This document shows, one piece after another, positions 16,605 to 63,355 of a DNA stretch of 64,000 nucleotides (positions are counted from its first letter, which is position 1; each line of letters starts with the position of its first letter). The notes beneath the pieces were generated by a model, which saw only the letters and a list, made by a program, of their open reading frames with translations, did not search any database and was not told where the DNA came from. Origin of the DNA: an uncultured Bacillota bacterium (GTDB lineage Bacteria > Sysuimicrobiota > Sysuimicrobiia > Sysuimicrobiales > Segetimicrobiaceae); contig CAWDRG010000015.1 of assembly GCA_963804645.1 (NCBI GenBank), positions 160,001 to 224,000 of the forward strand. The letters run 5' to 3'. Both the position numbers and the translations under genes were made by a program.

Positions 16605-16681
16605 CGCGGGGTGGAGCAGTCCGGTAGCTCGTCGGGCTCATAACCCGAAGGTCGGAGGTTCAAATCCTCCCCCCGCTACCA
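16605..16681 (+). tRNA. Initiator tRNA-Met (CAT)
   Basis: 77 nt; C1:A72 mismatch; anticodon stem GGG/CCC; loop CTCATAA; GGTTCAAATCC; encoded CCA. Confidence 0.98.
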
Positions 16682-16694
16682 AGTTCACAGAGGC

Positions 16695-16730
16695 GACCCG
16701 CTCGGTAGACTCCGAGCGGGTCCTTTTTGT
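16695..16730 (+). terminator. Intrinsic terminator after the tRNA
   Basis: GACCCGCTCGG-loop-CCGAGCGGGTC followed by a T tract. Confidence 0.85.
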
Positions 16731-16819
16731 GTTTCGAGGGACGCGATTTTGACAAACTTCCACCGGCCGTGTTAAGGTACGTAGTAGCTATTGGCTACTT
16801 ACTCGTAGAGGTGTTGGCC

Positions 16820-17089
16820 GTGGGAATCGTGACGGCGAAGCAGCTCAAGAATAGTACTGGTGAGGTCTTGCGCCGCGTGCGATCCGGCGAGATCGTAACG
16901 GTTACGATCCGTGGCACAAGCGTGGCGCAGTTCATCCCCCTGCGCGGTAGGGCCCAGGTACAGCATTTACGCCAGGCGCGTGCATCAAAACAAACTGTCG
17001 TGCGGTCCGTCGCTGGACGGTACCGGGGTGTGGGGACCCTGCGGGAATTTCTCAAGGACAAAGCTCAGGAGATTAGACAGGAGCGATAG
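16820..17089 (+). CDS. Phd/YefM antitoxin
   Basis: VTAKQLKNSTGEVLRRVRSGEIVTVTIRG; upstream TTGACA at 16749 and operator AGTAGC-N5-GCTACT at 16783-16799. Confidence 0.85.
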   Translation: MGIVTAKQLKNSTGEVLRRVRSGEIVTVTIRGTSVAQFIPLRGRAQVQHLRQARASKQTVVRSVAGRYRGVGTLREFLKDKAQEIRQER

Positions 17090-17092
17090 GCG

Positions 17093-17509
17093 GTGCCCCC
17101 ACTATTCGTCCTGGATTCGAGTGCAGTGCTGGCGTTCCTTTATGGGGAGCGTGGCCGGAATCGGGTTGAGCAGCTGCTCCTCGAGGCCGCCGAGGGCCGC
17201 GCAACGATCCGATTACATCGAATCCATCTTGGGGAAGTGTACTACGTCTTCTACCGCAAGGGTGGGGAGCGGACTGCCGAGGCCATGCTCGATGACGTCG
17301 GGCAACTACCAGTGGAAGTCGAAGATCGCGTTTCGCCCGCCCTAATGCGCGAGGCGGGCAGGATCAAGGCTTCGTACCCTATGTCTTATGCCGATGCCTT
17401 CGCTGCGGGACTGGCACGGGTTCGGAAGGGGATCCTGGTTTCGGCCGACCGCCTCGAGTTTGGACCTGTTGAATCGGCCGCCGAGCTCTCGGTCTTGTGG
17501 GTGCGGTGA
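17093..17509 (+). CDS. vapC: VapC PIN-domain toxin
   Basis: FVLDSSAVLA, GEVYY, SYADAF, SAD. Confidence 0.9.
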   Translation: MPPLFVLDSSAVLAFLYGERGRNRVEQLLLEAAEGRATIRLHRIHLGEVYYVFYRKGGERTAEAMLDDVGQLPVEVEDRVSPALMREAGRIKASYPMSYADAFAAGLARVRKGILVSADRLEFGPVESAAELSVLWVR

Positions 17510-17624
17510 GGGAAGACACGGATCGCCACGCGGAACACAGATCAGCATAGAACGATCGCATCGCATGCTGCTGGAAGCGCGGCAAGTGGTAGGCAAAATT
17601 GTTCTGATTCCCTAAAGGAGAAGT

Positions 17625-17721
17625 AGGCCACTGCGTGACGCAAGGAGACGGCCCGATCGTCAAGGAACCAGTTCATCGCTATACACCATCACCGATTGGG
17701 GGTCCGCACACAGGTCCGCAC
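17625..17721 (+). repeat. Cassette-end module, copy A (truncated by an IS21 end)
   Basis: Homologous to 19114-19265 and 60776-60949; ends GGGGGTCCGCACACAGGTCCGCAC. Confidence 0.75.
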
Positions 17722-17830
17722 TGTCAACGCCGGGTTAGAAGTGACCCCACTCCTGCCGCTTTTGAATTGACCCACCCCACGCGGCCACCGCATCGCGGGC
17801 CGCCGGTTTAGAATTGACCCACCCCCCTTC
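17722..17830 (+). mobile_element. Isolated IS21-like terminal sequence with no istA/istB
   Basis: Starts TGTCAACGCCGG and has repeated GAA(G/T)TGACCC motifs, typical of IS21 ends. Confidence 0.55.
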
Positions 17831-18076
17831 GGCGCTCACGCCTTGCCCGGCGCAGCGGCTGGCTCGGCCTGGCATCGACTCCAGTCGTTCCTCGAAGCAC
17901 AGAGCTGCCGTAACAGCAAGACTTATGCACACAAAGTCCCTGGCGGGTTTATCTTCGTATGCGGGGACAACCCCCCGGGTCTATGCCTTTGGGCGATGAG
18001 GATCATCCGCGGCTCTTGAGGATATCGGAGTCGTCAGAACGTAGCTTGCGGCCTACGGCGCTGCCGTAGTACACTA

Positions 18077-18385
18077 ATGTGTGTGGCTGGTCCGGATGAC
18101 TTTGACGGCTTCGAGTGGGATGAGGAGAAGAGCGCGCGCTGCTATGAGGAACGTGGTTTCGACTTCGACTACGCAGCGAAGCTTTTCGACGGCGATTTTA
18201 TCGAGTGGGAGGACCGGCGCCGCGACTGGGGTGAGCCGCGAGTCGTCAGCGTCGGAGAGGTCGAGGGACGAACCCTCACCGTTATCTGGACACCGCGCGA
18301 GACCCTGAGGCGAATTATCTCGGCGCGACCGGCATCGCGGTCGGAGAGGGAGAGACTGCATGGCAACCGTGAGACGCAGCAATAA
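18077..18385 (+). CDS. brnT: BrnT-family toxin
   Basis: FEWDEEKS....RGFDF..A..F; DWGEPR; RRIISAR.ASRSER; upstream palindrome CTACGGC-N3-GCCGTAG. Confidence 0.88.
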   Translation: MCVAGPDDFDGFEWDEEKSARCYEERGFDFDYAAKLFDGDFIEWEDRRRDWGEPRVVSVGEVEGRTLTVIWTPRETLRRIISARPASRSERERLHGNRETQQ

Positions 18386-61625: not shown

Positions 61626-61787
61626 CGGGCACCTCACATCGTGTGGTATATACCCGAGTATATATATTAGTATAGATATTTCGCTGACCCTTGTCAAAGG
61701 GTAAACCGTCGGTCATCGCGGGTGCAATTTCGCGTTTTGAGGAAACCTGCTCGAGCGGCACCAGGACGATTGGCAGAGGCAAAAGCG

Positions 61788-62186
61788 GTGGAGTTCGTCG
61801 TCGACACGTCGGCCTTGCTCGCGGTGCTGCTTGATGAGCCGGAGCGTCCGTCACTTATTGCTCGCACGCAGGGTGCGGTGCTGTTGGCTCCGGGCTCCGT
61901 CCCGTGGGAGGTAGGGAACGCACTCATTGCAGGATTTCGCCGGAAGCGACTCAGTGCTCGGCAAGTTCGGGATGCGTGGGTGTCATTCGAGCGGATCCCG
62001 CTGCGTTTGCTGCCCATCGCTGTTGCCAAGGCGCTTGAGTTGGCTGAGCAACTGGGACTCTACGCCTACGATGCCTATATTCTAGAGGCGGTCCGAGCCC
62101 ACCGCGCTCCTCTTTTGTCGATTGACAAGCACCTGCGGGCCGCGGCGCTGAAACTGGGGCTTGAGGTCTGGGAGGCGATGCCATGA
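61788..62186 (+). CDS. vapC: VapC PIN-domain toxin
   Basis: VVDTSALLA, WEVGNAL, YAYDAY, LSID. Confidence 0.9.
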   Translation: MEFVVDTSALLAVLLDEPERPSLIARTQGAVLLAPGSVPWEVGNALIAGFRRKRLSARQVRDAWVSFERIPLRLLPIAVAKALELAEQLGLYAYDAYILEAVRAHRAPLLSIDKHLRAAALKLGLEVWEAMP

Positions 62187-62458
62187 AGGTTTATACATAT
62201 TCTGAAGCTCGTCAGCGGCTCGCAAGCGTGTTGGAACAGTCACGGCGGGAAGGGCAAGTTCAGATCCGCCGCCGCGATGGGCAGTTGTTTGTACTGCAAC
62301 CAGCCGGCAGGGTAAGTTCTCCCTTAGATGTCCCGGGGATTACGGGGGATCTCCGGCCCGGTGAGTTGGCGGCTATGCTGCAGGAGAGCCGTCGGAGCGG
62401 CCACCGGTTCTGGGGCAACAGTCAAAGGGTGCCGGCACGGCGACAAGTGAAGCGATGA
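62183..62458 (+). CDS. Phd-like antitoxin (toxin-first gene order)
   Basis: YTYSEARQRLASVLE...V.IRRRDG...SPLDVPG; ATGA overlap with vapC. Confidence 0.85.
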   Translation: MKVYTYSEARQRLASVLEQSRREGQVQIRRRDGQLFVLQPAGRVSSPLDVPGITGDLRPGELAAMLQESRRSGHRFWGNSQRVPARRQVKR

Positions 62459-62479
62459 CGCCTCACCCCGGGGCCTGGG

Positions 62480-62520
62480 TAACCCGAAGGTCGGCGGTTC
62501 AAATCCTCCCCCCGCTACCA
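62480..62520 (+). repeat. tRNA-Met 3' 41-bp repeat (1 mismatch)
   Basis: TAACCCGAAGGTCGGCGGTTCAAATCCTCCCCCCGCTACCA, then a hairpin and T tract at 62528-62566. Confidence 0.95.
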
Positions 62521-62655
62521 GTACAGAGGGCTCGCTCGAAGCATCGGAGCGAGTCCTTATTTTTTTGAGATTGACTACTAGTTGAGTTGCGGATGTGGTC
62601 TCTCAAGCCGGTAACTTCCAAGCCTCCTTCGGCGAAGTAAGGGTATCTGGTCTGG

Positions 62656-63087
62656 TCAGGTTGACAGTACCTTCTTCAAGTAGTGCTTCTTGTGTCCAAT
62701 AGGGTATCCATCGAGGACACCGATTTCTTCGTAGCCGAGCTTTTCATAAAAACCAGGTGCCTGAAAACTATGTGTCTCGAGAGTGGCGATGTGGCAACCT
62801 CTGCGGATCGCCTCCTGTTCAACGGCGCGCATCAACTTTGATCCAAGTCCCTCTCCACGGAAGTCCTCGCGCACCCACAAGGATCGAATGTCGAGGCACC
62901 CACCCCATGTATACGCACGGATTCCGGCGATGAGCTGCCTCATGGAATCGCGCAAGAAGATCGCGAGGTCCCCGTAGTCGTAGATCTTTGTCTCCTCGAC
63001 GTTGAATGTGTCGACGTGGTCCCTGAGAGACTCGATGTCCTGGGGGTCGGGGTTGACTTCAATGTCGAATTGGAACTGCTGCTCCAT
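62656..63087 (-). CDS. GNAT N-acetyltransferase
   Basis: LWV.EDFRGEGLGSKLM, THSFQAPGFYEKLGY. Confidence 0.92.
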   Translation of the reverse strand: MEQQFQFDIEVNPDPQDIESLRDHVDTFNVEETKIYDYGDLAIFLRDSMRQLIAGIRAYTWGGCLDIRSLWVREDFRGEGLGSKLMRAVEQEAIRRGCHIATLETHSFQAPGFYEKLGYEEIGVLDGYPIGHKKHYLKKVLST

Positions 63088-63205
63088 GACTGGCCCTCCC
63101 AGATCGAGTCCGAGTCGCAGTCACCATTCGGGAAAACAGGGATTCGACCTTCGGTGTTGGGGTAGCTGATCACGCCAGTAGTATCTGTCGTGTCGGTAAC
63201 TCCCA

Positions 63206-63225
63206 AAATCCTCCCCCCGCTACCA
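63206..63225 (+). repeat. tRNA-Met 3' 20-bp repeat
   Basis: AAATCCTCCCCCCGCTACCA followed by AGTTCAC and a hairpin at ~63236-63270. Confidence 0.9.
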
Positions 63226-63335
63226 AGTTCACCTAGAAGACTCGCTTGGTTAGCGCCGAGCGAGTCTTCTAATTTTGCGTAAGCTTGGCTCGTGCCGCGC
63301 GACTTTAGGGTTCCGCCGTCTCCGAATCACTCCCA

Positions 63336-63355
63336 AAATTCTCCCCCCGCCGCCA
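63336..63355 (+). repeat. Degenerate tRNA-Met 3' repeat, probably the distal island boundary
   Basis: AAATTCTCCCCCCGCCGCCA; shares the upstream ACTCCCA with the 63206 copy. Confidence 0.7.

Follow-up and report, generated by a model that had tools for sequence, protein, structure and literature searches.

How does a single tRNA gene come to be trailed by a row of copies of its own 3′ end, with other genes packed between them? The question arises in a 64,000-nt stretch of contig C15 (C15:160001–224000, hereafter the window) from the genome of an uncultured bacterium, assembled as 5.3 Mb in 22 contigs with a guanine-plus-cytosine (GC) content of 0.686, 96.8% completeness and 4.2% contamination. 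An intact, single tRNA-Met(CAT) gene (16605–16681, + strand; called by ARAGORN, with which Rfam RF00005 agrees at 64.6 bits) is followed by a stack of at least nine units, numbered U1–U9, that extends past the window; positions there are given as window-equivalent, that is, in window numbering carried on along C15. The sequence of the tRNA, with its GGG/CCC anticodon stem and 1:72 mismatch, reads as the initiator type (tRNA-fMet). This gene is the integration target and the attL side of the newest unit. We conclude that elements probably integrated here in series, by site-specific recombination into the 3′ end of the initiator tRNA gene, and then decayed to units resembling cis-mobilizable elements (CIMEs). 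Mobile DNA is known to leave stacks of this kind, although a few units with one gene resemble cassettes and might still be movable.

A preliminary description of this DNA had placed six copies of the tRNA 3′ end behind the gene, and the sequence, repeat searches and shuffled controls bore out all six positions, in direct orientation (Table 1). A 25-nt tRNA end, allowing up to 3 mismatches, gave 4 matches against 0 in 100 shuffles. The genome-wide search for the tRNA fragment that the same description had proposed yielded one extra copy on C15, 20.7 kb beyond the window end, and none on any other contig; a looser scan of C15 gave no further convincing copy. The unit sizes also stood, at 3.98, 2.02 (0.56 net of its insertion sequence (IS)), 38.3, 1.52, 0.71 and 0.13 kb. 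By folding, a terminator-like hairpin stands at the head of every unit, and in six units its energy lies between −17.8 and −32.3 kcal/mol (z-scores from −2.4 to −7.2). The expected start, AGTTCAC or GTACAGAG followed by a hairpin, was found in these six units but not in the unit at 63356, which begins with AACTTCCCG and has a weaker hairpin than the other six. The GC content of the array is 0.639, compared with 0.686 for the genome.

Table 1. Features of the array behind tRNA-fMet. Positions are in window numbering; w.e., window-equivalent.
Feature	Position	Strand or orientation	Details
tRNA 3′-end copy	20616–20663	direct	48 nt, 48/48 identical
tRNA 3′-end copy	22675–22683	direct	9 nt, CCGCTACCA alone
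tRNA 3′-end copy	60950–60997	direct	48 nt, 2 mismatches
tRNA 3′-end copy	62481–62520	direct	40 nt, 1 mismatch
tRNA 3′-end copy	63206–63225	direct	20 nt, 20/20
tRNA 3′-end copy	63336–63355	direct	20 nt, 3 mismatches
Seventh tRNA 3′-end copy	C15:244693–244732 (w.e. 84693–84732)	direct	whole-genome scan
U1	16682–20663	+	Phd-PIN and BrnT-HTH pairs, ISL3-family IS (Pfam, repeats, alignment)
U1 AGTTCAC hairpin	16682–16735		
U1 Phd-like antitoxin	16820–17089		
U1 PIN toxin	17093–17509		
U1 orphan arm copy	17644–17721		
U1 BrnT	18077–18385		
U1 HTH antitoxin	18360–18710		
U1 type-1 arm	19102–19263		remainder 20586–20615, behind IS; then scar 20616–20663
U1 ISL3-family IS	~19267–20587		97% copies on C9 and C5
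U2	20664–22683	+	GNAT unit, dead copy; opens with GTACAGAG hairpin
U2 GNAT 3′ part	20719–20881	minus	
U2 IS256-family IS	20882–22341		splits GNAT; Pfam Transposase_mut
U2 GNAT 5′ part	22342–22674		
U3	22684–60997	+	38.3 kb; AGTTCAC hairpin at start; GC 0.641 vs 0.686 genome
U3 AbrB-like antitoxin	22828–22983		
U3 PIN	23042–23476		
U3 type-1 arm	60764–60949		with tandem GGTCCGCAC motif; then 48-nt fragment 60950–60997
U4	60998–62520	+	AGTTCAC hairpin, ParE-Phd, PIN-Phd, short type-2 arm, 40-nt fragment 62481–62520
U4 ParE	61087–61338	minus	
U4 Phd of ParE pair	61338–61697	minus	
U4 PIN	61722–62186		
U4 Phd of PIN pair	62183–62458		
U5	62521–63225	+	705 bp; one-gene unit, GTACAGAG hairpin first
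U5 GNAT acetyltransferase	62656–63087	minus	intact
U5 type-3 arm	~63160–63205		with invariant TAACTCCCAAAAT; then 20-nt T-loop fragment 63206–63225
U6	63226–63355	+	130 bp, geneless; AGTTCAC hairpin, degenerate type-3 arm, 20-nt fragment (3 mismatches)
U7	63356 to ~w.e. 83890	+	haem-copper oxidase assembly genes, then IS field
U8	~w.e. 83891–84732		hairpin, PIN-Phd, 40-nt scar (outside window)
U9	from w.e. 84733		hairpin, motif GGTCCGCACACAGGTCCGCAC, 32-codon integrase N-terminus ending in TAG

The tRNA fragments had been proposed to be a single reusable recombination site. Instead, they fall into three scar classes with different arms. All scars run to the tRNA 3′ end; the 48-nt and 40-nt scars begin in the anticodon stem-loop and the 20-nt scars in the T-loop. 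Type 1 (20586–20663, 60920–60997) has a 48-nt scar from the anticodon stem on, preceded by GGGCGTTCCGGGCAGGGG and, by sequence, by a tandem GGTCCGCAC motif about 75 nt further upstream. Type 2 (62481–62520 and window-equivalent 84693–84732) has a 40-nt scar from the anticodon loop and an arm of merely about 25 nt, from the Phd stop codon to the scar. Type 3 (63206–63225, 63336–63355) has a 20-nt scar from the T-loop, and its arm carries TAACTCCCAAAAT before the scar. The GGTCCGCAC motif occurs four times in the genome, always at the array locus; three of the copies lie in type-1-type arms, two of them about 75 nt 5′ of a tRNA fragment and the third in the orphan copy of U1. To judge from their sequences, the three classes, whose arms are unrelated, are not derivable from one another. 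Because each class has its own arm, at least two integrase specificities, and probably three, would have acted at tRNA-fMet.

No enzyme of either kind accompanies the scars within 16605–63355, where Pfam searches of 51 open reading frames (ORFs) and six-frame searches with PF00589 and PF00239 agreed with the earlier claim that the 47 kb hold no tyrosine or serine recombinase. The wider region C15:176605–274000 also gave no PF00589 match, and neither did Pfam on sets of 51, 32 and 21 ORFs. Behind the last tRNA fragment, the sequence encodes the 32-aa N-terminus of a tyrosine integrase, 81% to the integrase P0001 of the related genome G017, and then stops at TAG; this stub is the sole match of P0001 by tblastn in its own genome, and a hairpin and the tandem GGTCCGCAC motif precede it. 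In G017, the tRNA is followed by a hairpin and GGTCCGCAC flank as in U9 and then by an intact tyrosine integrase (PF00589; about 440 aa); the island to which it belongs is 8.4 kb long and ends in an 18-nt tRNA scar. A cognate integrase thus sits beside the attachment (att) site in G017 and not in the genome studied here. With the stub in one genome and the intact version behind the same flank in the other, U9 is demonstrably the stump of an integrase-bearing island. The cargo of the G017 island (L025:1649–4817) comprises DUF2604 (ubiquitin-like), Metal_CEHH and ThiF-type E1-like genes, beside a PIN-like gene and an HTH/ImmA-type regulator, and looks like a defence system.

The only large serine recombinase nearby, of 704 aa and with a C-terminal HTH_17 domain, lies in U7 (window-equivalent 79311–81425), surrounded by further multi-copy elements. 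We rejected it as the integrase of the array because it belongs to a multi-copy element with a 99.6% copy on C11, and it is probably part of a mobile element of its own. The two copies of that element (L001:15299–18115, window-equivalent 79299–82115, and C11:12985–15805; 99.6% identical) both lie near an 853-bp repeat that has five copies in the genome. Separately, about 160 kb before the window, three PF00589 matches fall inside 6 kb (G000:C15:9628–15449) and may represent a recombinase trio.

The class comprises 94 species genomes, nearly all fragmented, the relatives being metagenome-assembled, and the family comparison covered 22 other genomes; tRNA-fMet was matched in 16 of these 22, and in nine of the 16 the contig stops within 1.5 kb downstream. 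Relatives of P0001 (E up to 1e-10) occur in 19 of the 94 class genomes, counting the stub described above, and in two of the 22 family genomes: G017, the source of the query, where the gene is intact, and G001, where a 28%-identical copy contains a stop. G019 has the type-1 end and G015 a diverged version of it; in G015 an HTH_17 excisionase-like gene lies directly 5′ of this type-1-like (48-nt) end. G013 provides the empty-site flank, the same sequence that follows the type-1 scar in G019. A DNA search with the type-1 arm hit five of the 94 class genomes at E up to 0.01, including the one studied here; among the four others, G019 alone is convincing. On these sequences, the excisionase-like gene that G015 retains appears to be gone from the type-1 units, and their integrase would have GGTCCGCAC in common with the element of G017. 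The scan of genome contigs for the GGTCCGCAC tandem returned 38 loci in Streptomyces, Alphaproteobacteria and other unrelated groups, which were taken for chance matches on the basis of taxon and left unused.

Serial integration would account for these features as follows. Elements carrying a spare tRNA end and a terminator would integrate successively through site-specific recombination by tyrosine integrases, and every insertion would rebuild the tRNA and displace the older units, with a tRNA fragment, downstream. Crossover would have taken place at two sublocations or more: in the anticodon loop, which left the 48-nt and 40-nt scars, and in the T-loop, which left those of 20 nt. Later deletions would have removed the integrase and excisionase genes, and IS elements would have landed in the array, leaving CIME-like stumps that keep both att-type ends and lack a recombinase. 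Decay within units is visible in the IS insertions of U1 and U2 and in the truncated end of U2, which a deletion of about 137 nt would have reduced to CCGCTACCA (22675–22683). The cargo of the small units amounts to six toxin–antitoxin pairs and the GNAT gene, and the enrichment in such pairs may have come about because these genes resist deletion. The duplicated small units would stem from homologous recombination or gene conversion between repeats, possibly with past re-integration. The order of the integration events is one that we infer. Because the 96.8%-complete assembly holds no cognate integrase, the units are probably immobile and inert in this genome.

The ends of type 3 were followed beyond this genome. 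Their arm occurs in two of the 94 class genomes and, in one metagenome scan, on six metagenome contigs. Two of the six, L064 and L067, are near-identical strains of the array locus, and a third, L069, looks from its sequence and position like the G012 contig. L065 and L068 have other sequences upstream of the type-3 end. L066 holds a 773-bp unit of U5-like build between two tRNA scars, with a different gene (GyrI-like, but matched weakly: 23.4 bits, with the cut-off at 26). In the alignment, type-3 fragments from different contigs vary in their T-stem bases (CCTCC, CCAGC, CGAGC, CGTGC); the fragments of the array match their own tRNA, and CCAGC in L068 matches the tRNA of genus g2. If the half of the scar that contains the T-stem bases is host-derived, such differences between contigs would be expected. 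Neither type-3 nor type-1 ends were found on viral contigs. The genome-contig collection returned no type-3 arm, even though G012 carries one, and so seems to lack the relatives.

L066 also shows where the array may end. It aligns at 87–90% to C15:274120–281139 immediately after its own last tRNA scar, and the first gene common to the two flanks encodes a NUDIX protein. From this match on one contig, the ancestral flank probably resumes near window-equivalent 114100, which would make the variable region behind tRNA-fMet about 97 kb long. An IS copy is 99.25% identical between L066:1–1200 and G000:C2:219502–220701, whereas the chromosomal flank common to both is only 87–90% identical, which suggests recent exchange of the IS. 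On the other side of the array, an IS256-family (Transposase_mut) gene lies directly 5′ of the tRNA (15238–16641), and synteny with relatives stops near 13055, upstream of the tRNA.

Two cargo types of the small units also recur in relatives. The GNAT gene is present in six of the 94 class genomes and, with the same query, in none of the six other genomes of its own genus. In genus g5 (G015, G010) it lies downstream of the tRNA region, and we considered GNAT as an ancestral neighbour of the tRNA; in G012 (genus g2) and in the array it is tied to a type-3 scar. The G012 copy has the same type-3 arm and scar, and its other side abuts a peptidase/hydantoinase block, with neither a tRNA fragment nor a hairpin there. 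An AGTTCAC-type hairpin, then an antitoxin-like ORF, then a PIN gene occur in G022, G012 and L065; Pfam confirmed the PIN gene in L065, and the assignments in G022 and G012 were read from the sequence.

Several observations weigh against serial integration and decay as the whole account. U5, which packs its hairpin, single gene, conserved arm and scar into 705 bp, looks too neat for a random stump, and U6 has the same frame minus the gene. The array contains two copies each of the GNAT and PIN-Phd units, and the copies have different left neighbours: the GNAT copies of U2 and U5 are 98% identical over 338 nt, and the right half of U4 (61779–62520) is 96.9% identical to window-equivalent 83991–84732 in U8. 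Simple decay does not yield duplicated units with different neighbours. The L066 unit repeats the U5 design with another gene, and between a type-2-like scar and the common NUDIX flank L066 and the array differ in content. TAACTCCCAAAAT is invariant in all six aligned type-3 ends, behind at least four different upstream sequences. No integrase remnants were found within U1–U8 by PF00589 or by tblastn with P0001, and no conjugation, mobilization or phage genes were seen. In G006, of the same genus, a PIN-Phd unit (65% aa identity) lies directly behind the intact tRNA and is closed by a degenerate T-loop-type scar unlike the type-2 end that closes it here. The view of the units as decayed stumps of integrase-bearing islands, which the preliminary description had set against its own proposal, holds for U9, with its intact counterpart in G017, and gains from the excisionase-like gene of G015, but it does not cover the recurrence of the small units.

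These points lend weight to the proposal that the small units, chiefly U5, U6 and related units of type 3, were born small, as non-autonomous elements moved as cassettes by an integrase acting in trans, a reading that we think unlikely but take seriously. The T-loop end of the tRNA would be their common recombination site, the integrase would come from a passing helper or from a gene elsewhere, and the locus would be an integron-like gene-collecting site in function, not in ancestry. In such a type-3 cassette, a terminator hairpin would come first, followed by a single gene, a conserved arm some 45 nt long and the final 20 nt of tRNA-fMet. The arm is indeed conserved while its cargo varies (GNAT here and in G012, the GyrI-like gene in L066, other sequences in L065 and L068); one-gene units stand between tRNA fragments both in U5 and in L066, U6 is an empty unit, the GNAT unit sits once behind a 48-nt and once behind a 40-nt fragment, and different units occupy the interval before the NUDIX flank in L066 and in the array. 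Chromosomal integron cassettes carry toxin–antitoxin pairs and an acetyltransferase, which the cargo of the array resembles. Yet the integrase adjoining the same arm repeats that had been predicted was found near none of the type-3 ends in the genome itself, in G012 or on the metagenome contigs, and the arm occurs in two of the 94 class genomes, on no viral contig and on six metagenome contigs, two of them near-identical strains of this very locus. The junction that a U5 circle would form (arm and scar, then GTACAGAG) is present in none of the six metagenome matches. The G012 GNAT lacks the fragment and hairpin on its other side, the right ends of the PIN-Phd units differ between G006 and the array, the type-2 arm is very short and U2 is broken twice over. 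What stands of the tiny non-autonomous cassettes first described are the tRNA-end scars, the missing recombinase, several tiny units, two that recur and a T-loop arm with varied cargo; membership among integrons does not. The stronger form, in which type-3 units are a family of miniature recombinase-less cassettes reshuffled by an integrase encoded elsewhere and the tRNA-fMet locus is integron-like by independent origin, we regard as rather doubtful.

The duplications could alternatively be mostly intrachromosomal, with unequal crossing-over or gene conversion multiplying a few original scars left by few independent integrations. The U4/U8 copy, which extends from roughly 10 nt ahead of the PIN start codon to the tRNA fragment, and the near-identical GNAT copies would fit. 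We nevertheless consider this account highly improbable: the three scar classes have unrelated arms, none derivable from another; the post-scar hairpins are homologous yet agree in only some 75% of positions, and the changes are paired so that the stems persist; the units after the two GNAT copies (U3 in one case, U6 with U7 in the other) have just the hairpin in common; and arm classes recur at independent tRNA-fMet loci, type 1 in G019 and G015 and type 3 in G012 and on metagenome contigs. Even less credible is that part of the array is an assembly artefact, strain variants of a metagenome-assembled genome joined through repeats. The 22 contigs and 4.2% contamination invite the suspicion, independent support is missing for three junctions (20663, 22683 and 62520), and L064 joins an IS256 end to a U5-type GNAT, an arrangement foreign to this assembly. 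Independent contigs nonetheless bridge U3/U4 and U5/U6/U7 (Logan contigs across 60752–61090 and 63059–63966; L067 across 62647–64147 at 99.5%), the left part of U2 differs from U5 (85–96% identity, with indels), the junctions of U2 are unique and the repeats common to the junctions are at most 48 nt long. Inspected for circles or excision, the contigs from four peat metagenomes are short and cover 57000–64000 at a depth of about 2–7; the one joint at repeats, from 60943 to 62496 with side 21 and other letters between, is ambiguous. In L064, the IS256 end (0/362 mismatches; window 21980–22341) is joined to a GNAT that is identical to that of U5 (0/338 mismatches) and not to that of U2 (6/338), and the contig also matches 62743–65534; either it stems from a recombinant U2×U5 strain that lacks U3 and U4, or it is chimeric, joined across 127 identical nt.

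Serial integration and decay also places the array among known systems. CIMEs are described as elements that keep attL and attR after losing their integration and transfer genes, and that undergo tandem accretion (PMC5704250). The units fit this definition. Flanking att-type direct repeats are present except at the 9-nt end of U2, the right of U7 and the left of U8; integrase and transfer genes are absent, the serine recombinase of U7 being that of a multi-copy element. For descent from an integrative and conjugative element (ICE) or an integrative and mobilizable element (IME), there are the stub, the intact G017 integrase and the excisionase-like gene of G015, with no conjugation or mobilization genes seen. 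As in the accretion of ICESt1 and ICESt3 of Streptococcus thermophilus, att-type repeats are kept, integration genes are gone and repeated site-specific integration has piled up units behind the 3′ end of a target gene; unlike those cases, several units are far smaller (0.13–1.5 kb), there are at least nine units with three scar classes, neither conjugation genes nor a parent ICE or IME were seen in the array, and the host is an uncultured peat bacterium. Tycheposons of Prochlorococcus are tandem tRNA-adjacent elements separated by partial tRNAs, with degenerate remnants (10.1101/2020.12.28.424599). The array shares with them its tRNA-adjacent position, its tandem arrangement, the partial tRNAs between units, the degeneracy of deeper remnants and the rarity of intact elements; it differs in its cargo, mostly toxin–antitoxin pairs and two large metabolic blocks, and Pfam found no integrase or replication module (primase/helicase) of the tycheposon type among the array ORFs scanned.

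Islands linked to tRNA genes that carry P4- or lambda-type tyrosine integrases use the anticodon loop or the T-loop as their crossover site. The array resembles them in scars that start in the anticodon stem-loop or T-loop, in GC below that of the genome and in a candidate arm-type repeat of presumed function, GGTCCGCAC, beside the G017 integrase; it differs in that its genome retains just the 32-codon integrase stub. In integrons, an IntI-type tyrosine recombinase with attI adjoins the array, and the cassettes, bounded by attC sites (imperfect palindromes) and mostly promoterless, face one way downstream of a shared promoter. With such arrays the present one shares a series of small units, most with one or two genes, a repeated boundary and cassettes without a recombinase inside. 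The boundaries, however, are direct tRNA-end fragments of three length classes, not attC palindromes (no attC model was run), no IntI adjoins the array, the GNAT and ParE-Phd genes lie on the minus strand and the others on the plus strand, and a terminator-like hairpin opens every unit. With no IntI, no attC sites, genes on both strands and terminators, the earlier analogy fails as a statement of membership, and none of the defining features tested makes the array an integron.

The large units hold further features. The cargo of U3 is metabolic and regulatory genes (Pfam, ORFs). A group II intron lies within it at 31035–32804 (Rfam group-II-D1D4-4, 86 bits), with a reverse transcriptase/maturase ORF (RVT_1, GIIM). 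A repeat of about 170 nt occurs three times in U3, 63–88% alike, at 23488–23654, 35879–36045 and 39596–39759, and the similarity runs on behind two of the copies (23785–23971, 39937–40122); two tandem 93-nt copies, 96% alike, lie at 24875–25060 within an ORF without a Pfam match (24611–25522). The right half of U7 contains IS copies 99% identical to copies elsewhere in the genome (megablast), and its right end has no recognizable tRNA fragment at the boundary with U8, whose left scar has been replaced by the 853-bp repeat element. Behind the integrase stub, U9 continues with about 29 kb of metabolic genes.

If the cassette reading were true, the locus would point to a counterpart of integrons in gene capture, one based on tRNA ends and on an integrase that acts in trans. 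If serial integration and decay, which we favour, is correct, this would be a well-resolved case of one tRNA gene gathering about 68 kb, and probably about 97 kb, of foreign DNA, in which the survivors of decay are attachment scars, terminators and toxin–antitoxin pairs. Recognizing such stacks helps to annotate the genomes of uncultured soil bacteria, where they break assemblies.

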